Below, one piece after another: positions 2,291 through 11,058 of a stretch of 64,000 nt of DNA. The stretch covers positions 26,182 to 90,181 of the forward strand of contig JAWBDT010000005.1 in NCBI GenBank assembly GCA_038821645.1, read 5' to 3'. The notes below the pieces were generated by a model that worked only from the letters and a program-made list of their open reading frames with translations, had not been told where the DNA came from and ran no database searches. Numbering within the stretch: position 1 is the stretch's first letter; each line of letters opens with the position of its first letter. The position numbers and the translations under genes are program-made. The stretch comes from Ignisphaera sp. (GTDB taxonomy: Archaea > Thermoproteota > Thermoprotei_A > Sulfolobales > Ignisphaeraceae).

Positions 2291-3439
2291 TTACTCCAAT
2301 AGCTCTGTCTTAACCTTAGGTCCCTTAACTTGATATAACTTAGCTTCTGTAAATCTATCCTGTAGCTTCTGTAGTACTTGTGGTAATGTGGTATACTCCA
2401 TTTCCTCAGGTCCAAGTCTATGTGGCATAAATGGTCCATGCCTTCTCATGTATTCTGCTATCGTTTGAGCTAATCTTCTAGTCTCATCAAATGCAGGATC
2501 ATCAAAGAGATCTGCTGGTCCTATAAGTCTTCCATTCTTTATCTGGAATCCTAATGCTACAACTCTTGGTGGACCATCAAATCTCGTACATCTAGCGTTA
2601 CGTTGACCTACTGGCATTAATGGTCCAAAGTGGCTTCCTCTCATCCAACCTGCTACAAGATGTGGAAATGCGAAAGCCTCTATAACTTCTCCAACTGCTG
2701 GAAAACCTGATTGAGCTCTAACAATAGCTACAGGATCATCTTTACCTACATACTGGCCCGCTATGAGATTTAGTCTCTCTACAGCAACAACTGCAGCAAT
2801 TTCATTATCACTCTTCCTAAATATCCTTCTTATAACAAATCTTCCTGGTGTACCTATAAGAGCTAAAAGATCGTACATCTCTTCAGGAGAATTAAGAACA
2901 ACATATTTACCAGCTATAACGTCGTATACCTCGAACTTAAATCCATCATGAATCTTTGGATCTATGACTAGCCCTGCTGTATTGAAGGGATCTGCAAACA
3001 CTCTGAAGAGTGGAAGATTAAAGGCGCCGGGCTCAGTTTTATCAGCCATAAAGACTATTACTGGTTCTGAAGGTCTTTCCACAAACTCCATCTCAGCTGC
3101 CGATGGACCTAGACCTCTAACATTTCCAGAAAATGCTTCTGTAAGTAAATCTTGTCCTGCAGCATAGAGTCCTAGTTCTTTAGCAACTTTAGCTGCTTCT
3201 TTGAATGCATTCCAAGCTGTTTCATGAACTTCAGAAGCATCAACACCTTTTCTATGAGTCATTATTAGCTCTAGATCATCTCCTACATGCGTTATATAGT
3301 AGTCTATCAATATACCCTTGCTTTTTGCTTCAGCAAGAACTTTAGCAGCTGCAGCCATGGTGTCTGGATGAACCATGTGGTGTCCTGCTAATGAACCTAT
3401 ATCAGCCTTAATAACCGAAATGGTTGTTTTTTCACCCAT
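2291..3439 (-). CDS. fbp: Bifunctional fructose-1,6-bisphosphate aldolase/phosphatase (class V FBPase)
   Basis: SVIKADIGSLAGH, GQDLL, DKTEPGAFN, YVGKDDP and GWMRGSH motifs. Confidence 0.97.
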   Translation of the reverse strand: MGEKTTISVIKADIGSLAGHHMVHPDTMAAAAKVLAEAKSKGILIDYYITHVGDDLELIMTHRKGVDASEVHETAWNAFKEAAKVAKELGLYAAGQDLLTEAFSGNVRGLGPSAAEMEFVERPSEPVIVFMADKTEPGAFNLPLFRVFADPFNTAGLVIDPKIHDGFKFEVYDVIAGKYVVLNSPEEMYDLLALIGTPGRFVIRRIFRKSDNEIAAVVAVERLNLIAGQYVGKDDPVAIVRAQSGFPAVGEVIEAFAFPHLVAGWMRGSHFGPLMPVGQRNARCTRFDGPPRVVALGFQIKNGRLIGPADLFDDPAFDETRRLAQTIAEYMRRHGPFMPHRLGPEEMEYTTLPQVLQKLQDRFTEAKLYQVKGPKVKTELLE

Positions 3440-3548: not shown

Positions 3549-5357
3549 TTAATCTAAGTAAAAGTATTGTCCTATAGATTTCTGGTATCTATCTAGATAA
3601 CTATTGGGCTTATTTATTCTAGGTCTACCTGATTGAGGATCTCTCCTCATCGTTATATTGAGTTCTTTCAAGAAATTATTGAATGTTTTAGCAACAGCAT
3701 CTGGAGCATTTCCATATCCCTTTGAGCCGGGGATCCCTGAAAAGAACATAAGCCTATCTACGGCATAGTCTATGAGCAATACATTGTGGTCAACAACAAA
3801 TATTGATGCCTTTCTTATTCTTGCTACACGCCTTATTACTCTCGATACTGATAACTGATCTTCTACATCTATATGAGATGAGGGTTCATCTAGAAGATAT
3901 ATATCGGCTTCTTGTATTAGTGTACGAGCTATATGAAATTTCTGTAATTCACCTCCACTTAAAGTGGATACATCTTTAGACATTAGTCTATCAAGGTTAA
4001 GCCGCTTAATTATTTCACTATTCATCCAATTACCTTCAGCTAGAGCCTCCTTGTTTGCATTCTTTAAGCATTCTTCAACAGTCATACAACCTTCTATCTC
4101 TCTTGGGAGATATTGAGGTTTATAACTTAACTTAAATGCTACAGTTGTTGTGTAACCATCATCAGGCTTGATTTCGCCTGCAAGAATTTTTATGAATGTT
4201 GTCTTACCTATGCTGTTAGGACCTACAATCCCTATAACTTCACCTCTATGCACCTCTCCGGGCTCTACATAAAGCTCGAAACTGTTTAATCTCTTCCTAA
4301 TTGTTCCCCAAGAACATAATACCTCGCTATATTCTACCTCTCTCTCATTCCTAGATTCATGTAATCTAAATGTTATACTCTCAGATCTTATCTTCATATT
4401 TTCAGAAGGTAAGAAACCTTTTAAATAGTAGTCTATACCAGCATTAGTTGGGTACAGATTTGAAAATATACCATAAGTACCTGGTACACCATATGTTATA
4501 ACAACATTATCAGCTACATAGTCTAGGAATGTTAAATCATGATCTACGATAAACACGTATCTATTGCGTGCTACAAGTTCATCTAATGCTTTAGCAAGTA
4601 CTACTCTTTCTTTTATATCTAAATAGCTAGTAGGTTCATCAAATAGATACACATCTCCTTCTTTCATTAATGCAACAGCTATAGCAAGTTTCTGTAGTTC
4701 TCCTCCACTTAAGATGCTAATATCCTTGTCAATAATGTTTTCCATATTTAATACTGATATAACGTCCCTAAATAATCCACGTTCATCAACCTTTGCTAGA
4801 ATTGATTTTACACTACCCTTTTTAACGTATTTAGGTATATACTCTATATACTGAATCTTATGAACTATCTTTAGATTTTGAGCATAAAGGTTAGCAAAGT
4901 ATTCATAGAATTGTGTACCCTTAAACTTATCAAGCACATAGTCTGTCTTTACCTCACCTTCATATTTACCAAAGTTCGGGATAATGTTACCAGACAATAT
5001 CCTTAAAGCTGTTGTTTTACCTGCACCATTAGGTCCTATGATTGCTACAAACTTTCCTTTTACGGGGATAGGTAGCCCATATAATTTAAATGCATTGGGT
5101 CCGTATCTATGGATAAGCTTTTCCTCTATTTCTTCTGGAAGATTCACTATCCTTATTGCAGCAAAAGGACATTTTTTGATACATATACCACAAGCAATAC
5201 ATTTATCCTCGTATATGAGTGGCTTTCCATTTTTATTCTCACTAAGCTCTATTGCTTTATAAGGTCTTGTTCTATTTATTGGACAAAACCTAATACACGG
5301 TATACCACATTTTTGTGGATTACAAAGATCATAATCTATTGAGGCAACTCTAACCAT
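3549..5357 (-). CDS. rli: Ribosome recycling ATPase ABCE1/RLI
   Basis: N-terminal 2x[4Fe-4S] Cys motifs, two ABC domains (GPNGAGKT, LSGGELQ x2), C-terminal RRDPQSGRPRINK. Confidence 0.97.
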   Translation of the reverse strand: MVRVASIDYDLCNPQKCGIPCIRFCPINRTRPYKAIELSENKNGKPLIYEDKCIACGICIKKCPFAAIRIVNLPEEIEEKLIHRYGPNAFKLYGLPIPVKGKFVAIIGPNGAGKTTALRILSGNIIPNFGKYEGEVKTDYVLDKFKGTQFYEYFANLYAQNLKIVHKIQYIEYIPKYVKKGSVKSILAKVDERGLFRDVISVLNMENIIDKDISILSGGELQKLAIAVALMKEGDVYLFDEPTSYLDIKERVVLAKALDELVARNRYVFIVDHDLTFLDYVADNVVITYGVPGTYGIFSNLYPTNAGIDYYLKGFLPSENMKIRSESITFRLHESRNEREVEYSEVLCSWGTIRKRLNSFELYVEPGEVHRGEVIGIVGPNSIGKTTFIKILAGEIKPDDGYTTTVAFKLSYKPQYLPREIEGCMTVEECLKNANKEALAEGNWMNSEIIKRLNLDRLMSKDVSTLSGGELQKFHIARTLIQEADIYLLDEPSSHIDVEDQLSVSRVIRRVARIRKASIFVVDHNVLLIDYAVDRLMFFSGIPGSKGYGNAPDAVAKTFNNFLKELNITMRRDPQSGRPRINKPNSYLDRYQKSIGQYFYLD

Positions 5358-5434
5358 TAATTATTGACCTCTCTAGAAATCTAACTTGGTAGTTAAAGTA
5401 GCAAAAAAATGCTTTAGTCATATACCCGAGGCTA

Positions 5435-5509
5435 TCACCATTCTTCTTCTTCCCACTCTTCCTCTTCTTCCCACCATTCTTCTTCTTCCCACTCTTCCTC
5501 AAACATCAT
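5435..5509 (-). CDS. Putative 24-aa acidic Glu/Trp peptide MMFEEEWEEEEWWEEEEEWEEEEW
   Basis: ATGATG start at 5509, TGA TAG double stop, GGTG RBS 7 nt upstream, TTTTTAAA TATA-like box with purine-rich BRE at ~5545-5560 on the minus strand. Confidence 0.6.
   Translation of the reverse strand: MMFEEEWEEEEWWEEEEEWEEEEW
5438..5500. repeat. Direct repeat of 27 nt (CCATTCTTCTTCTTCCCACTCTTCCTC) x2 with 36-nt period
   Basis: Copies at 5438-5464 and 5474-5500; encodes EEEWEEEEW twice on the minus strand. Confidence 0.85.
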
Positions 5510-5615
5510 TTATCTACACCAGCATTAGCTTCACAAAACTGGGATTTAAAAATATTTTCTGTAGATAATTTATTAATGTGCTTAAATATATCACAAAGAA
5601 CATGTATCTGTAACT

Positions 5616-6134
5616 CTAATCTTTAATTAATAGATTGCTACATCCAATAATTCCTAAGACTATCTTGCCATATTCAATACTATCAAATATTCGAATTCTG
5701 TCTTCACCAATCTTTGTCTTTAAGTAATCGACGTAAAATTGATTTAGATACGAATCATGAGTCTCATACACGAAACTGCATTTAGTATTCTCTAAAACAT
5801 TTCTCAATACTTTTGAAGTACATTCATTAATTGAATAAACAAGTAGAAGTTTATGTCTATCTGAAAATCTTGAAAGATACTTATTTAGTACTGTATGTAT
5901 TTGTCTTTCTGCAAAAAACCTTATGTAGAATTCTAGCTCTGGCTTTCTTGCTACATTCTTCTTAGTTTCCACAGCTTTAACAGTATTAAAGAAAGCTAAC
6001 ACGATATTCTGCCATGGTGCCTTGAGCCCTTGGAGCAACATACACAATCTTACTCCACTACATAATTCATTAACTTTTGTACAAATTTCTTCATATTGAT
6101 CTGACTCACATTGAATAAATGCTAACAGTATCAA
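5616..6134 (-). CDS. cgi121: KEOPS complex subunit Cgi121-like protein
   Basis: KNVARKPELEFYIRFFAERQI resembles the Cgi121 signature; directly downstream of Urm1 as in crenarchaeal clusters. Confidence 0.65.
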   Translation of the reverse strand: MILLAFIQCESDQYEEICTKVNELCSGVRLCMLLQGLKAPWQNIVLAFFNTVKAVETKKNVARKPELEFYIRFFAERQIHTVLNKYLSRFSDRHKLLLVYSINECTSKVLRNVLENTKCSFVYETHDSYLNQFYVDYLKTKIGEDRIRIFDSIEYGKIVLGIIGCSNLLIKD

Positions 6135-6412
6135 ATAGATCCTCCATGGGCTATAGGTACAATTGTTACAATGTCCTCATTCTTTACTACAATATTGCTT
6201 ATTCCACCATAAACGTTAATGTCAATATCGTTAACTAATATCAAGTATTCATTTTGAAAATCACTATCATCAAATATTTTTTTGAGTTCAGATACAGCAT
6301 CAACAAGTCTAGCGAAAAAAATGTGTAGAGGTTCCTCGCCAGGAATCTCTACATCTATTTCAGATAAACCTAATCTTGATCTTAAATGACCTAGAAATCT
6401 TACCTTGACTAT
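6131..6412 (-). CDS. Ubiquitin-like Urm1/SAMP (MoaD/ThiS family) protein, apparent ATA start, ends ...PIAHGGSI
   Basis: Not in ORF track. 93-aa beta-grasp pattern (I)VKVRFLGHLRSRLG...YLILVNDIDI...DIVTIVPIAHGG; in-frame TAG immediately precedes ATA; GGGTGA RBS 5 nt upstream. Confidence 0.85.
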   Translation of the reverse strand: MVKVRFLGHLRSRLGLSEIDVEIPGEEPLHIFFARLVDAVSELKKIFDDSDFQNEYLILVNDIDINVYGGISNIVVKNEDIVTIVPIAHGGSI

Positions 6413-6434
6413 CTATGTCACCCTTTGTTCCTAA

Positions 6435-6638
6435 TCACGACTCTGATTGTCTTTCTCTTAATTTCACCAGATGCGTAATGTATCCTGCAATCTGATTACG
6501 TAACTTCTTGGATTTTGTACTAACTAATTTAGAAACTAACTCTTTATTGTATTGAAATTCCGGCTTAAACATATCTGGATATAATGTTAATAACTTTCGT
6601 GCAGTTCTTTTCACTATACCTATTCTAACTTTTCCCAT
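6435..6638 (-). CDS. rps17e: 30S ribosomal protein S17e
   Basis: MGKVRIGIVKRTARKL...SKKLRNQIAGYIT; start moved to ATG 6638 behind GGTGA RBS. Confidence 0.96.
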   Translation of the reverse strand: MGKVRIGIVKRTARKLLTLYPDMFKPEFQYNKELVSKLVSTKSKKLRNQIAGYITHLVKLRERQSES

Positions 6639-6804
6639 GATATCACCACATTCACTAGTTGTTACATTACCTATCAATATACACAGACATACTCTATAGA
6701 CCTAAATTAGCTCTAAGCTTTAAAGGTTTCATGGAAATGGACATGCTATTTTCATTAAAATTTATATAGAACCTCTGTAGATGAACGTTATTCGGTGTAG
6801 GTAT

Positions 6805-8469
6805 ATGGCTCAACAAGCTCTACCGCCCTATGAACCCACAGGCATACCTGTAATAATACTAAAGGAGGGATCTAGTAGAACCACGGGACGCGATGCATTA
6901 AGAGCTAACATGATGGCAGCTATAACTGTGGCTGAAATGATAAAAACGACATATGGACCTAGAGGAATGGATAAAATGCTTGTTGATGCATTAGGAGATG
7001 TGACAATAACAAATGATGGTGCTACTATATTAGACAAAATGGATGTACAACACCCAGCGGCAAAAATGCTAGTTCAGATAGCTAAGGGACAAGATGAAGA
7101 AGCTGGTGATGGTACTAAGACTGCTGTAATAATTGCAGGTGAATTACTGAAACGTGCTGAAGAACTTCTAGACAAAGGTTTACATCCTACAGTTATAGTT
7201 AGTGGATATAAGAAGGCTTTAGATTATGCATTAACAATAGCTCACAACATAGCTGAAGATGTTGATGTAGAAAGTTCTTCAGCTGATGAAATACTAAAGA
7301 ATGTTGCTATTTCATCCTTAACTAGCAAAGCTGTACATGGTGCACGAGAGTACATTGCAGACCTAGTTGTTAAAGCTGTTAGACAAATAGCTGAAAAGAG
7401 AGGTGAGAGATGGTACGTCGATATAGATAATGTTCAAATAATAAAGAAGAAAGGTGGAGGTCTACTAGACTCACAATTAGTATACGGTGTTGTTCTAGAT
7501 AAGGAGGTTGTTCATCCAGCTATGCCTAGAAGGGTAGAAAAAGCGAGAATAGCTTTACTCGATACTCCTCTAGAAATAGAAAAACCAGAAATTGATGCAG
7601 AAATAAGAATAAGCGATCCTACACAAATACGTAGATTCCTAGAAGAAAAAGAAAACATCCTCAATAGCTATGTCGAGAAGATTGCTTCTGTTGGTGCTAA
7701 TGTTGTTATTTGTCAGAAAGGTATTGATGATGTTGCTCAACACTATCTAGCTAAGAAAGGTATTATGGCTGTTAGAAGAGTCAAGAGAAGCGATATGGAG
7801 AAACTAGAAAGAGCTTCGGGAGGTAGAATAGTCAGTAATATTGAAGATCTAACAGAAAAAGATCTAGGTGAATGTGAATTAGTTGAAGAAAGAAAGGTTG
7901 GCGAAGATAAAATGGTATTCATAGAGAATTGTAAGAATCCTAAATCAGTATCAATAGTTCTTAGAGCAGGACTAGAAAGACTTGTTGATGAAGCAGAAAG
8001 ATACGCTAAAGATGCCTTGAGTGCTGTTGCAGACATCTTTAGACTACCTAAAATAGTGTATGGAGCTGGAGCCTTTGAAATTGAGCTTGCTAAATATATA
8101 AGAGATTACGCTAATAAGGTTGGAGGTAAGGAGGGTCTAGCTGTAGAAGCATTTGCAAGAGCTATAGAAGGTATTGTTGAGACTTTAGCTACAAATGCTG
8201 GACTGGATCCTGTTGAAATAATTATGAAGCTTAGAGCAGAACACATGAAGTCTGAAGGTAAATACATAGGATTCAATGTATTTACTGGCGAACTAATAGA
8301 TGCGAAGAAACTAGGTATAATAGATCCTCTCCTAGTTAAACTATCTGCACTAAAAGCAGGTACAGAAGCCGCTACTCTAATCCTCAGAATAGATGATGTA
8401 ATAGCAGCATCTAGGAGGAAAGAGGAAGAAAAGAAGAAAGAAGAAAAGAAGGAAGAGGAAGAAAAGTAA
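6805..8469 (+). CDS. thsB: Thermosome (group II chaperonin) subunit, probably beta
   Basis: [14 protein letters not shown] and [10 protein letters not shown] motifs; charged C-terminal tail. Likely start ATG 6805 (ORF track 6781). Confidence 0.93.
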
Positions 8470-8473
8470 ACAC

Positions 8474-10090
8474 TTATACTCTAGCTATTTTAACAAGTAT
8501 AGGTTCAGCTAACTCTGGTAAAACAACTAATGCCTCACCAGGTTTTAGTGCAGAAATCATTTTTTTATGTTCTTTTCTAAATGGTATAGCAGATACAACT
8601 GTCTTTATATCATTGGAAGACTTTAGTGAATGTATTATCTTTGTATTGGTATTTTTAAGTACCACAGATGATAGCATTGAAGGAGCTTGAGTAATTACAA
8701 CAAAACCTATATTCCATTTTCTTACTTCGGCAATCAAGTTAGACACGGGATTCCCTGAATATAGTACATTATGAGCTTCGTCAACTATTATCAATACTGG
8801 CTTCACTATGTTGTTATACTGAGCTTTAATTACTATGGATCTAATCAATAGAGATGATAAAACTCGCTTCACCCTGGTGTTCGGTATATACGATATATCG
8901 AATACATATATCTTTTCTTTATCGATAACTACTTTTTTAAGCTTGTTCCAATATATCTTCAGATAATCACTTGAAAGCGGCTTCAATTTCCTCAATAATG
9001 CTTCTCTCGATTCTGTAAACCATCGTGCAGATGCAGAACTGTTCTGCACAATATCTATTATCTCATCTATACAGTAGCTACTGCTAGTAGTACGTCGAGA
9101 AACAATGTTTATAGCATCTTCTAATATATGGGCTTGAGGAGGCGTTAATTCTAATGCACTTTCCAGAATCTCTAAAAATGATAGAGGTTCTTTCTTTATC
9201 AACTCTTCAAAACTTAGTGGTTCTAAAATTGTTCCATTCAATGGATTTGTATAAACCATACTGTTTTTTAGTTGTATAAGCTCTTTGTATTCTCCATGCC
9301 AATCAAGCACTACTACGGCATAGCCATTTTCAGCAGATTTTTCCGCTATTATCGATGCTGTTGTTGATTTACCACTACCGGTAGAGCCAACGATAGCTAT
9401 GTGTCTAAATATATGATCATTATTAAGCGTAACAATAATCTTTGGATTAGAATACAAATAACCTAATGATATTGTTCCGTGACTGAATATAGATGATAAA
9501 TACTCGTATTCTTCAACAGTATTAATATTGTAAGAAGGATTCACAGATAGAGCATGTAGATGTACTGGTGTTTCTTCTTTTTCTCCTCTTTTTAGGATCT
9601 TAATTAAGTAATCAATTGGACTCTGTAGACCAAGACATTCGTTAAGCAATGCTAAAGGATCACTCTTAACTAAGCATTTTATTTCACCTTGTCCAAGGGT
9701 TTCTACTAATGCACAAATAGTATCTAGTTCTTTGAGTACCTCATCATTTGAGTTACACATTACAATAAGATTCGACTTGACACTATATGGATTAATGCAC
9801 GTCACAAATACATACTTTCTATTACTTGAGCTCCTATGATTCAAAACAGCAATAATATCTGAAACTCTACTGAGATACTGACCATCTCTAGCTTCATCAC
9901 CATTAGTAAGTACAAGCTCTAGTGTACCTATGAATAGATTTTTTCCATAAGGCTCAATATGTAGTTGAGCTAAACTATCAACTTTCTCAAGAAATATACT
10001 AACGTTTTTCCTCTTAATTATACCGACCCCAATATATGGAGATCTATTAAAGTGGTTTAAATAAAAATATAAACAGTACTTATTGTTCAT
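8474..10090 (-). CDS. HerA/VirB4/VirD4-like (DUF87) ATPase
   Basis: RHIAIVGSTGSGKST Walker A, LDWHGEY, IIVDEAHN Walker B, EVRKWNIG, ITQAPS; start uncertain. Confidence 0.85.
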   Translation of the reverse strand: MNNKYCLYFYLNHFNRSPYIGVGIIKRKNVSIFLEKVDSLAQLHIEPYGKNLFIGTLELVLTNGDEARDGQYLSRVSDIIAVLNHRSSSNRKYVFVTCINPYSVKSNLIVMCNSNDEVLKELDTICALVETLGQGEIKCLVKSDPLALLNECLGLQSPIDYLIKILKRGEKEETPVHLHALSVNPSYNINTVEEYEYLSSIFSHGTISLGYLYSNPKIIVTLNNDHIFRHIAIVGSTGSGKSTTASIIAEKSAENGYAVVVLDWHGEYKELIQLKNSMVYTNPLNGTILEPLSFEELIKKEPLSFLEILESALELTPPQAHILEDAINIVSRRTTSSSYCIDEIIDIVQNSSASARWFTESREALLRKLKPLSSDYLKIYWNKLKKVVIDKEKIYVFDISYIPNTRVKRVLSSLLIRSIVIKAQYNNIVKPVLIIVDEAHNVLYSGNPVSNLIAEVRKWNIGFVVITQAPSMLSSVVLKNTNTKIIHSLKSSNDIKTVVSAIPFRKEHKKMISALKPGEALVVLPELAEPILVKIARV

Positions 10091-10115: not shown

Positions 10116-10472
10116 ATGAATATGGAGTTCAGCTGTAAGGTAGTAGATGTTGCAGATTCGTATTTACCAAACGTCAATATACTGAATATTGATTGTGGTA
10201 TAGCGATAATAAAAATGGATATACATAGAGAACTTAACCTTGCTAGAAAAGGAGATTTAATTAACATAGGTATATACAAATCATTACCACCATATGTTGC
10301 GGGTAAGGATTTTTTAGCCCATGGTTACGTTATAACCAAGAAGAAAGATAACAACTATACAAACATTTACATAAGTTTATGGGGATATTTAGTAGTCATT
10401 AAAACTAACGAAATTAGATTAAATGAGTATCTAAATACTATGGATAAAGTATACATAAAACTGTGGAAATAG
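10116..10472 (+). CDS. rpoG: DNA-directed RNA polymerase subunit Rpo8 (RpoG)
   Basis: OB-fold sized protein with DFLAHGYV and ISLWGYLV motifs; upstream of SmAP and tgtA as in Crenarchaeota. Confidence 0.75.
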   Translation: MNMEFSCKVVDVADSYLPNVNILNIDCGIAIIKMDIHRELNLARKGDLINIGIYKSLPPYVAGKDFLAHGYVITKKKDNNYTNIYISLWGYLVVIKTNEIRLNEYLNTMDKVYIKLWK

Positions 10473-10617
10473 TTATCTACAAAATAATGATAAGATACAA
10501 AGAGAGTAACATGCTCTAGTTTGGGAAATGTAGCAATATTTACAGCATATCATACGGATTAATAATACTTATTATATCTTGTTTAGAAGTAGATATCGTA
10601 ACTTAGGTGAACTCACT

Positions 10618-11058
10618 ATGAGTTATGTCACGCGAAGCATCTCTGGTGAACTTTCACGTTTAATGGATAAAAAAGTTATAGTAAGACTGGTAGACGGAAA
10701 AGTCTATGTAGGTAAAATGCTATCCTTTGATCCTAACACGCTTCATATAGTATTAGGTGATGCAGAAAGTAATGATGGAAAGAAGTTTTACCGCATAATT
10801 ATTAGTGGAACAAGAGTTTCTGAGATTCTTATAGAAGAGCAGCCACTTTTTGATGCTGAAGAATTTGCCACGATTCTAACATCAAAATTGGGCCTCAGAC
10901 CTGATGTAATTAAGGTTCTACATGATGTTAATGTAGTAGTAGTGTACGACAGAATAAAGGTTAGTGAATCTGGTGTTGAAGGTGCTGGAAGTTTTGCCCA
11001 GAGAATATACGAAGTATATACAGAATATATAGAGAATAAAAAGAGAGGTGCAAAATAG
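10618..11058 (+). CDS. Sm-like archaeal protein with C-terminal extension (SmAP3-type Lsm)
   Basis: Sm1/Sm2 motifs (VIVRLVDGKVYVGKMLSFD...HIVLGDA...IIISG) plus about 60-aa extension; start ATG 10618 behind GGTGA. Confidence 0.88.
   Translation: MSYVTRSISGELSRLMDKKVIVRLVDGKVYVGKMLSFDPNTLHIVLGDAESNDGKKFYRIIISGTRVSEILIEEQPLFDAEEFATILTSKLGLRPDVIKVLHDVNVVVVYDRIKVSESGVEGAGSFAQRIYEVYTEYIENKKRGAK

Follow-up and report, generated by a model that had tools for sequence, protein, structure and literature searches.

A reading frame made up almost entirely of glutamate and tryptophan codons lies directly upstream of the ABCE1 gene in Ignisphaera, raising the question of whether so simple a sequence is a gene and, if so, whether its peptide or the act of translating it bears on ribosome recycling. 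Archaea and eukaryotes all possess ABCE1 and cannot do without it, and we know of no work describing what sets its cellular level or what modulates it away from the ribosome. The locus was analysed within the window, i.e., the whole 64-kb stretch of DNA considered here, and in the genomes of relatives.

The Glu/Trp Reading Frame and Its Internal Repeat

On the minus strand of the window, positions 5435..5509 read MMFEEEWEEEEWWEEEEEWEEEEW, followed by TGA TAG. The predicted product comprises 24 residues (16 E, 5 W, 2 M, and 1 F), in agreement with a sequence-only reading of this DNA that had described a minus-strand peptide with 16 E and 5 W here. Having neither Lys nor Arg, such a peptide would escape tryptic workflows. 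The reading frame, hereafter the E/W ORF, has the following features:

5438..5509, minus strand: coding sequence of the putative E/W microprotein, 24 codons (MMF, then E3-W-E4-WW-E5-W-E4-W)
5432..5437, minus strand: stop codons TGA and TAG, a tandem pair found only in the window among the eight loci compared
5436..5500, minus strand: internal repeat made up of two identical 29-nt units spaced 36 nt apart and an intervening 79% copy

The exact 29-nt direct repeat occupies positions 5436-5464 and 5472-5500, with the 79% copy at an offset of 18 nt, and this is the arrangement that had been described as a duplication with a 36-nt period. Tandem Repeats Finder (TRF) assigned periods of 18 and 9 to the tract. 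An 18-nt GAR/TGG motif occurred twice, compared with 0.00 occurrences in 100 shuffles, and no other acidic, Trp-rich short ORF was found within the 64-kb window; the E/W ORF is not a chance repeat. The internal repeats differ by lineage, for example with a 30-nt period in locus L001, which fits slippage in units of GAR codons. The double stop noted in the sequence-only reading is present in the window and is not general: six of the eight loci carry a single stop, and in L008 the second stop follows one codon later.

Genomic Context

The two genes that enclose the E/W ORF lie on the same strand:

3549..5357, minus strand: ABCE1, the ribosome-recycling ATPase and next gene downstream, with two Pfam ABC_tran domains, Fer4_RLI, and Fer4
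5616..6134, minus strand: probable Cgi121 (KEOPS subunit) of 172 aa, the upstream neighbour, whose TTG start overlaps the stop of a Urm1-like gene

The ABCE1 protein matched the solved chain 6tmf_d, deposited as "ATPase", at 2.1e-198, and further matches were named ABCE1 or RLI1. In the window, its gene starts 77 nt past the E/W stop, exactly the distance given previously. The 172-aa gene is probably Cgi121, judging from profile comparisons: a profile of eight orthologues matched 1zd0 at 4e-8 and Cgi121 chains at approximately 0.009 among PDB sequences, the NCBIfam Cgi121 model was matched at 4.7e-4, under its cut-off, and no Pfam family was matched. S17e was recognized by Pfam at 4.5e-14, and the Urm1-like gene gave a partial Pfam match at 8.9e-4, under the curated cut-off. 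The S17e-Urm1-Cgi121-ABCE1 cluster proposed from the sequence is thus supported, with the Urm1-like Pfam match and the Cgi121 NCBIfam match under the cut-offs. In the downstream direction, the genes comprise ABCE1, an FBP aldolase/phosphatase (FBPase), and a 230-aa ORF that resembles triose-phosphate isomerase (TIM), judging by its translation. None of these three is a gene of Glu or Trp biosynthesis, and no tRNA-Glu or tRNA-Trp gene was found within the 64-kb window. A precursor of a RiPP or a cofactor was considered and dropped, as no maturation enzyme is located nearby.

Conservation in Relatives

The loci of relatives were obtained by searching genome contigs for ABCE1. This returned 15 loci, namely seven of Ignisphaera/Desulfurococcales type, one from Undinarchaeota (L007), and seven bacterial ones. 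The bacterial loci were chance matches to the ferredoxin motif, and neither these nor L007 carried an E/W ORF. The comparison set therefore consisted of eight loci, the window and the seven relatives with a full ABCE1 match, among which ABCE1 identity ranged from 64 to 76%.

Exactly one E/W ORF was present in each of the eight loci, on the same strand as ABCE1 and 54-115 nt before it. Every ORF contains five Trp codons, ends in E3-E6 followed by Trp with the stop right after this last TGG, and has an in-frame stop 0-4 codons before its start. The distance from one Trp to the next differs by 1-3 residues in two segments, and the WW pair is missing from L001. Length differences never break the frame, and the start, a purine SD-like motif, and the stop are kept, although indels in multiples of three would be expected from slippage of 3-nt units anyway. 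The region is syntenic across all eight genomes, and the block S17e-Urm1-Cgi121-sORF-ABCE1-FBPase-TIM is kept in the relatives that cover it. The proposal of an unannotated microprotein gene is strongly supported by frame-preserving homologues in all seven relatives. The sequence-only reading had named missing frame-preserving homologues and frame-breaking repeat lengths as evidence against it; the frame is intact in 7/7.

Selection on the Amino Acids and Competing Frames

Pairwise differences at codon positions 1, 2, and 3 amounted to 0.02, 0.00, and 0.27 in the E/W ORF compared with 0.25, 0.149, and 0.536 in ABCE1, and the variable columns at these positions numbered 2, 1, and 18 of 31 aligned. 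The frequency of GAA/GAG exchange at aligned Glu codons was 0.398 in the E/W ORF and 0.413 at the conserved Glu of ABCE1. These swaps are ABCE1-like and positions 1 and 2 are nearly frozen; the silent sites are free and the amino acids fixed more tightly than in ABCE1. As judged from these alignments, purifying selection acts on the amino acids of the peptide. The eight peptides together contain 139 Glu and no Asp, whereas in ABCE1 Asp also occurs in 25 of the 78 Glu-containing columns. The lack of Asp among 139 Glu points to a requirement for Glu itself, such as helix formation on binding, rather than for charge alone, and argues against a purely charge-based mimic or ion binder, although part of the deficit in Asp codons could stem from a constraint that keeps the nucleotide sequence polypurine.

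The same tract could instead be a polypurine (GAR)n/TGG element of DNA or RNA, or be read in a different coding frame, the +1 frame giving a peptide rich in K, R, G, and N and the antisense strand one rich in Ser and His. After codon 3 the tract is indeed without C and confines T to TGG, slippage of GAR units would give in-frame indels without any selection, and a TTG start opens the +1 frame in seven of the eight loci. However, no replacement by another purine occurs at the first two positions of the GAR codons (no AAR or GGR), which a purine tract would permit, and Rfam gave no match. The +1 frame has no start in L008 and runs into unrelated tails (28-56 aa from stop to stop). The conserved ATG(ATG), the SD and promoter at fixed distances, and the stop at the same codon belong to the E/W frame only, on which account the alternative frames were rejected as coding frames. 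We consider this reading of the tract very improbable. The E/W ORF keeps start, stop, and ribosome-binding site and is substituted at silent sites, as expected of a protein-coding sequence, with the caveat that its A/G changes would be equally synonymous if read in the antisense Ser/His frame, itself startless in four of the eight loci. From this comparison, the E/W ORF is very probably a translated gene.

Promoter, Ribosome-Binding Site, and Spacer

The signals around the E/W ORF and in the spacer before ABCE1 are as follows:

5544..5560, minus strand: BRE/TATA-like promoter element AGAAAATATTTTTAAAT
5525..5531, minus strand: block AAGCTAA, located between the TATA element and the SD and identical in the window and L001-L003
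5517..5520, minus strand: SD-like GGTG of the E/W ORF, 7 nt before its ATG
5403..5409, minus strand: T7 run in the spacer, at a distance of 25 nt from the sORF stop and 45 nt from the ABCE1 ATG
5367..5373, minus strand: SD-like GAGAGGT of ABCE1; in the relatives, GGTG, AGGT, or GGGT lies 6-13 nt before the ABCE1 ATG

GGTG is found 7-9 nt before the E/W ATG in seven of the eight loci and is replaced by GAGGA in L008, and AGAAAT(A/G)(T/C)TTTTA is conserved 34-36 nt before the ATG, also in 7/8. The ribosome-binding site and TATA/BRE-like element that the sequence-only reading had assigned to this ORF were thus recovered in most relatives, and the FBPase gene of the window shows the same promoter layout. 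From its distance to the TATA element, we infer that the AAGCTAA block marks a putative transcription start site. The promoter, this block, and the SD are kept, in contrast to the spacer before ABCE1, which is poorly conserved in length and sequence.

Regarding the spacer, all seven relatives carry a T6 run that ends 12-18 nt before the ABCE1 ATG. Archaeal promoter geometry places a TATA box farther from the start codon, and a role of these runs as the ABCE1 TATA box was rejected for the seven relatives as too close to the ATG; in the window it is possible. The T7 run of the window could act as an oligo-T terminator or attenuator or else be the TATA box of ABCE1. In L004-L006, a separate promoter for ABCE1 could not clearly be recognized. 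Reading a T-run as a terminator follows general knowledge of termination and not the T-run statistics of this genome: a run of T5 or longer occurs within 120 nt past the stop in 10 of the 44 long ORFs of the window, and sense-strand runs of T6 or more number 6 compared with 29 of A6 or more, a depletion that is not clear after allowing for composition. U-tracts have been described to function in archaeal termination (PMC8716108).

Database, RNA, and Literature Searches

No Pfam family was returned for three of the eight E/W peptides at E up to 10, no NCBIfam family for four versions of the peptide, and no PDB sequence at E up to 10. Exact look-up of nine versions in a collection of 15 billion proteins gave no match, because the peptide lies below the size cut-off of gene finders, and tblastn gave none in phage and plasmid records, a result that carries no information because the low-complexity filter was on. 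Rfam had no match at E up to 1 on either strand of 5000..6900, and no terminator-like hairpin was found in 5200..5800. Minimum free energies (MFE) of folding differed from shuffles by z-scores of -1.53 to +1.35 over the eight loci, with no shared structure. In the MFE folds the U-run pairs with GAA runs, which is trivial for purine and pyrimidine tracts and weak even at 37 °C. An RNA element was set aside given the lack of an Rfam match and of a significant fold. Matches from a scan for bacterial-type promoters and terminators did not exceed those in shuffles. Among the literature matches listed for ABCE1, archaea, and upstream ORFs, no title concerned this peptide or an archaeal sORF before ABCE1; the text EEEWEEE retrieved plant NAC papers alone, and the matches for Ignisphaera small proteins were unrelated by title.

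A Possible Free Peptide Acting on the Translation Apparatus

Our tentative preference is for a translated gene whose peptide acts in trans on the translation apparatus, with the stalk-tail patch of ABCE1 as the prime candidate. The E/W ORF would then be an unannotated gene of the Ignisphaera lineage with its own BRE/TATA promoter and Shine-Dalgarno site, and the first reading frame of a unit that runs on into ABCE1. Its product would be a polyanion of ~24 residues, in which Glu runs leave five Trp, the N-terminal Met-Met-Phe/Leu, and the C-terminal Trp exposed. As a detached acidic tail with aromatic anchors, the free peptide would dock where the translation apparatus presents a basic and hydrophobic surface, the first candidate being a patch on nucleotide-binding domain 1 (NBD1) of ABCE1, where it may tune the recruitment of ABCE1 or the activation of its ATPase in ribosome splitting. 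Judging from the sequences, action in trans taken by itself is plausible, if still short of an even chance; that ABCE1 or the sites to which the stalk tail binds are the target is suggested by analogy and is quite unlikely on its own.

The analogy starts from the ribosomal stalk, whose tail is described to bind ABCE1 NBD1 and translational GTPases through C-terminal anchors, the C-terminal peptide of aP1 binding NBD1 through hydrophobic residues and activating ABCE1 (PMC6125642). The E/W peptide shares with this tail (aP1, P1/P2) a short, flexible, acidic chain that carries hydrophobic or aromatic anchors at its extreme C-terminus, and an acidic stretch ending in a hydrophobic or aromatic free C-terminus was found in 8/8 loci. 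The corresponding patch of the window's ABCE1 is hydrophobic and basic, as mapped through a P. abyssi chain with its numbering assumed. The E/W peptide differs in being encoded by a gene of its own instead of forming part of a ribosomal protein, shows no sequence similarity to the tail, and has as anchors five Trp along the chain instead of Leu/Phe; the Leu/Phe motif (L103, L106, and F107 in aP1, as given in PMC6125642) is absent from the C-terminal part of the E/W peptide. This dissimilarity and the lack of a PDB sequence match speak against the trans-acting explanation. Likewise, the variable Trp spacing and the missing WW pair of L001 are more compatible with fuzzy binding than with docking at a defined site.

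A second comparison concerns eIF3j/Hcr1, which aids ABCE1-dependent splitting and whose N-terminus reaches the nucleotide-binding sites of ABCE1, the yeast eIF3j N-terminus lying at a similar ABCE1 position in what has been termed a "multivalent interaction patch" (PMC7780240). In contrast to the E/W peptide, eIF3j is a dimeric helical-bundle protein and several times longer, and the likeness implies no homology. The N-terminal region of eIF3j is acidic with a conserved Trp, and eIF3j is not known in Archaea.

The peptide also seems built for full translation, because bulky residues (M, M, F/L, and W) break up its acidic runs, and in E. coli bulky residues just before an acidic stretch have been described to counteract translation abortion (bioRxiv 10.1101/2021.02.02.429294). 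A codon-sensing leader would show the same Glu-only and Trp-only codon content, however, and adjacency to ABCE1 does not separate action in trans from action in cis, because the whole region is syntenic in all eight genomes.

Translation of the Reading Frame as a Possible Leader

The close rival is a leader cistron, in which translating or terminating the E/W ORF, and not the free peptide, sets the ABCE1 output of a shared transcript; we regard it as a real if doubtful possibility. Its general basis is the position of a short same-strand ORF directly upstream of ABCE1 in 8/8 loci, as in an attenuator, with an oligo-T run in every spacer, placed close before the ABCE1 ATG in the seven relatives, and without a clear separate ABCE1 promoter in L004-L006. 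A role in cis would not preclude one in trans, because the leader peptide peTrpL is reported to be active in trans as well (PMC7298713). Against a leader stand the poorly conserved spacer, the chance that the T7 run of the window, 45 nt before the ATG, is simply the ABCE1 TATA box, and the absence of an archaeal leader-peptide attenuator among the literature matches listed.

The mechanism could take three forms. In the first, a recycling feedback, scarce ABCE1 would leave unrecycled ribosomes at the sORF stop, from where they would reinitiate 54-115 nt downstream; loss of function of ABCE1/Rli1 has been associated with aberrant reinitiation (PMC13530914, PMC11109482).

In the second, the N-terminal acidic runs would abort or stall translation by intrinsic ribosome destabilisation (IRD) and so report ribosome or Mg2+ status. 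Chains rich in D/E at the N-terminus are reported to cause abortion of translation both in yeast and in a factor-based human system (PMC9718836), and at least 7 D/E per 10-residue window near the N-terminus is given as a criterion for IRD-prone human genes (PMC12673854). In the E/W peptide, acidic residues are concentrated in the first ~10 positions: residues 2-11 include 7 D/E, which reaches this threshold, whereas none of the window's 45 long ORFs exceeds 4, and the densest 10-residue stretch of the peptide has 9. The small residues expected beside a destabilising acidic stretch were not found; M-M-F/L or Trp precedes every acidic run, and such bulky neighbours should suppress rather than promote destabilisation. 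The effect may also be weak in hyperthermophilic archaea, because N-terminal D/E is not avoided in the Pyrococcus furiosus proteome according to PMC9718836. A known counterpart would be MgtL, likewise a very short ORF that precedes a regulated gene and begins with acidic residues directly behind its start codon. MgtL is bacterial and combines an acidic/proline motif with subsequent premature abortion (bioRxiv 10.1101/2021.02.02.429294), whereas the E/W peptide is without proline, has bulky residues flanking every acidic run, and precedes the gene of a ribosome-splitting ATPase.

In the third form, a shortage of charged tRNA would stall ribosomes at Glu or Trp codons and alter read-through of the oligo-T before ABCE1. 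Glu-only, never-Asp codons would suit such sensing at the codon level. The layout resembles trpL/peTrpL in its short upstream ORF, repeated codons including Trp, and a T-run in between, and differs in that the downstream gene is not one for Glu or Trp, that alternative hairpins were not found, that the host is archaeal, and that the E/W ORF conserves the whole peptide instead of a codon run only. Neither a codon run for an amino acid supplied by the downstream gene nor a terminator/antiterminator structure was found: ABCE1 is unconnected to Glu or Trp supply, there are no terminator hairpins, and the folds are no better than shuffles (z of -1.5 to +1.35). A classical attenuator of the trpL type is unsupported; the earlier suggestion of a Trp/Glu-sensing leader persists as part of this rival.

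Some of these elements could be joined with the trans-acting explanation. The E/W cistron would be heavily initiated and hard to translate and terminate, and would serve as a gauge of ribosome-recycling capacity: when ABCE1 is short, unsplit ribosomes would run into ABCE1 or change oligo-T read-through, restoring ABCE1, and the released peptide may also dock on the stalk-tail patch. We rate this combination as unlikely.

Possible Partners Unrelated to ABCE1

The position before ABCE1 could also be an inherited accident of gene order, with the microprotein serving a partner unrelated to ABCE1, such as a basic chromatin or ribosomal protein, polyamines, metal ions, the nearby genes for KEOPS and Urm1, or a binding site for nucleic acids that the peptide would block as a mimic. 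This explanation draws on the same coding evidence as the trans-acting one, the E/W ORF has its own promoter, and linkage is little informative because relatives covering the region share the syntenic gene block. In addition, acidic residues that expose aromatics have been described as a general binding design of disordered acidic peptides (PMC9241528). The acidic activation domains to which that source refers share with the E/W peptide this exposure of aromatics for fuzzy partner binding; they differ as fast-evolving segments of eukaryotic transcription factors from a near-invariant, stand-alone archaeal peptide. Nothing positive favours any one partner, however, and the absence of Asp speaks against a purely electrostatic mimic or ion binder. 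We rate an unrelated partner as unlikely.

Significance

The Glu/Trp peptide has remained nearly invariant while ABCE1 diverged by 24-36%, which amounts to extreme selection on a low-complexity sequence. It is small enough for synthesis, carries intrinsic Trp fluorescence, and is open to direct tests whichever way it works. If the E/W ORF works in cis, leader-peptide control and nascent-chain sensing would be extended to Archaea, and a gauge of recycling capacity, if true, would have no described precedent as a leader-peptide control circuit in Archaea or as a dedicated ABCE1 regulator in any domain. If the peptide binds ABCE1 or the factor sites to which the stalk tail binds, ribosome recycling would gain a trans-acting regulator of a new kind.

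Organization of the E/W ORF and its surroundings

Directly upstream of the ABCE1 gene, the minus strand of the window carries a short open reading frame (E/W ORF) whose translation is the 24-residue Glu/Trp peptide MMFEEEWEEEEWWEEEEEWEEEEW, followed by the double stop TGA TAG. Two identical 29-nt copies stand in direct repeat within the tract at a spacing of 36 nt, corresponding to the 36-nt-period duplication described in the sequence-only reading, which had also placed the ORF under its own ribosome binding site and promoter. Both signals were located, namely GGTG 7 nt upstream of the ATG and the TATA/BRE-like element AGAAAATATTTTTAAAT at 5544..5560, in the same layout as at the window's fructose-1,6-bisphosphatase gene. 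ABCE1 starts 77 nt past the E/W stop, and the S17e gene, an Urm1-like ORF, and a 172-aa ORF that probably encodes Cgi121 are tightly packed upstream, as the proposed S17e-Urm1-Cgi121-ABCE1 cluster implied.

Features of the E/W locus in the window and its relatives
5509..5438, minus strand: E/W coding sequence; ATG ATG TTT, then GAR and TGG codons only
3549..5357, minus strand: ABCE1, next gene downstream of the E/W ORF
5403..5409, minus strand: T7 run, 45 nt upstream of the ABCE1 ATG
6131..6412, minus strand: Urm1/SAMP-like ORF, open for 93 codons, C-terminus ..AHGGSI
12-24 nt upstream of ABCE1 (ATG at 3001) in the related loci L001-L006 and L008: T6 run, adjoining an SD-like motif

The Urm1/SAMP-like ORF of the window lacks ATG, GTG, and TTG until its last 37 codons, while in relatives it begins with GTG or ATG; the start may be non-canonical or recently lost, or the sequence may contain an error.

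The composition of the peptide is unusual for this window. An 18-nt GAR/TGG motif has 0.00 expected occurrences in shuffled sequence, and no second short ORF of comparable acidity and Trp content was found within the 64-kb window. Compared with the window's 45 long ORFs, the peptide has seven D/E at residues 2-11 (at most four in the long ORFs) and a Trp share of 21% (0.8%). The gene is unannotated: the peptide matched no family in Pfam or NCBIfam and no PDB sequence, no Rfam family matched at the locus, and none of nine versions of the peptide was present in a collection of 15 billion proteins.

Conservation and coding potential

A search of genome contigs with ABCE1 as query returned 15 loci, comprising seven Ignisphaera/Desulfurococcales-type MAG contigs (ABCE1 identity, 64-76%; the L008 contig ends within ABCE1), one Undinarchaeota locus, and seven bacterial chance matches. 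The expected frame-preserving homologues were present, with exactly one E/W ORF in each of the seven related loci, 54-115 nt upstream of ABCE1; none was found in the Undinarchaeota locus or the bacterial matches. The comparison set thus consists of eight closely syntenic genomes. The peptides measure 24-27 residues (28 in L008 if counted from an upstream ATG), a range to be read knowing that slippage of 3-nt units yields in-frame length changes without selection. They begin with M-M-F/L, except for M-Y-F in L008, contain five Trp each, and all end in Trp with the stop codon immediately after. An in-frame stop lies 0-4 codons upstream of every start, the promoter element keeps a constant distance in seven of eight loci, the SD-like motif is GGTG in seven and GAGGA in L008, and an AAGCTAA block upstream is identical across the window and L001-L003. 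Unlike these signals, the spacer to ABCE1 is barely alignable.

Variable columns at codon positions 1, 2, and 3 numbered 2, 1, and 18 (31 alignment columns), with the caveat that A/G substitutions are silent also in the antisense Ser/His frame. Pairwise differences by codon position were 0.02/0.00/0.27 in the E/W ORF versus 0.25/0.149/0.536 in ABCE1, which is among the most conserved proteins known, and GAA/GAG exchange at aligned Glu codons was 0.398 versus 0.413. The E/W peptide is therefore more constrained than ABCE1, with silent sites drifting freely, a pattern that fits strong purifying selection on a coding sequence. The antisense frame has no start codon in four of eight loci, and conserved boundaries and signals belong to the E/W frame only. 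We consider it very probable that the E/W ORF is a translated gene.

The eight peptides contain 139 Glu and no Asp, while Asp shares the column at 25 of 78 Glu-containing ABCE1 columns; charge alone is thus insufficient to explain the sequence. Beyond codon 3, C is absent in all eight loci and T is confined to TGG. Three readings remain: a requirement for the Glu residue itself, e.g., for helix formation upon binding; a requirement for Glu codons through codon-level sensing; or a preference for purine-only RNA.

The spacer and its oligo-T run

The ORF is predicted to be transcribed from its own promoter. An oligo-T run is present in every spacer between the ORF and ABCE1; in all seven relatives it is a T6 ending 12-18 nt upstream of the ABCE1 ATG, immediately 5′ of the SD-like motif, within otherwise unalignable spacers. 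Judged by standard archaeal promoter geometry, the T6 is too near the ATG to serve as the ABCE1 TATA box in the relatives; the window's T7 could do so. As U-tracts act in archaeal termination according to an excerpt of PMC8716108, the run is a candidate signal for termination or attenuation between the two genes. The window's own genome sequence provided no independent support for T-run termination, no terminator hairpin was found at this region, and no significant RNA structure was found there in the eight loci. Immediately past the stop, L001 (2913..2935), L002 (2919..2941), and L003 (about 2905..2925) share a conserved block with the sequence CTTCGAATTATTTTTACTA or a variant of it; the block looks like an ABCE1 TATA box or a first T-run terminator, in spacers where TATA-like stretches are not interpretable at 65% A+T.

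The run is also a candidate site for a U-binding protein. At higher window coordinates are genes for a HerA-type ATPase (8474..10090, minus), RNA polymerase subunit G (10116..10472, plus), and an Lsm protein with an Lsm_C domain (10579..11058, plus). U-rich RNA is a ligand of Lsm proteins, and this gene may or may not be related to the T-run.

Possible functions

Tentatively, we favor a free acidic-aromatic peptide as the putative product; with its free C-terminal Trp it could dock on the stalk-tail patch of ABCE1 nucleotide-binding domain 1 (NBD1), a candidate site, or alternatively on equivalent sites of translational GTPases. Excerpts of two studies describe the hydrophobic end of the flexible C-terminal region in aP1, the archaeal stalk protein, binding NBD1 and activating the ATPase (PMC6125642), and the N-terminus of yeast eIF3j at a similar position, a "multivalent interaction patch" (PMC7780240). 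Mapped via a P. abyssi chain with assumed numbering, the patch in the window's ABCE1 is hydrophobic and basic. Residues around 161-176 and 223-231 form the surface bound by the stalk tail in Pyrococcus ABCE1; under the same alignment and numbering, three Tyr (VHKIQYIEYIPKYV) make it appear more aromatic in the window than in Pyrococcus, and the Sulfolobus chain is also aromatic there. In E. coli, bulky residues before acidic runs counteract translation abortion (bioRxiv 10.1101/2021.02.02.429294, in part), and by analogy the bulky residue ahead of each acidic run suggests that the E/W peptide is meant to be completed.

Somewhat less probably, the ORF would be a cis-acting leader. Acidic N-terminal runs destabilize ribosomes in bacterial, yeast, and human systems (excerpts of PMC9718836, PMC12673854, and bioRxiv 10.1101/2021.02.02.429294) and aberrant reinitiation is linked to loss of ABCE1 function (excerpts of PMC13530914 and PMC11109482), so a busy short ORF ahead of ABCE1 could feed back on ABCE1 synthesis. 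A microprotein whose partner is unrelated to ABCE1 would fit as well but is less probable still. Readings other than the E/W frame are very improbable: the +1 frame (window 5350..5502, minus; also L001-L006) would encode a strongly basic K/R/G/N-rich charge mirror of the acidic peptide and has a TTG start in seven of eight loci, but it is startless in L008, its tails are unrelated among loci, and it is probably not a gene.

When compared to known systems, the E/W peptide resembles stalk tails and acidic activation segments in composition but lacks the Leu/Phe motif of the stalk tail. In position, the ORF resembles MgtL and attenuator leaders; however, MgtL-type leaders have small residues by their acidic runs where the E/W peptide has bulky ones, and attenuator leaders have alternative hairpins, absent here, and precede genes that make the cognate amino acids, unlike those after the E/W ORF. 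The free-peptide and leader roles would not be exclusive, by analogy with peTrpL. The E/W ORF lacks a defining feature of each system to which it was likened, and is best filed as a conserved microprotein or leader cistron.
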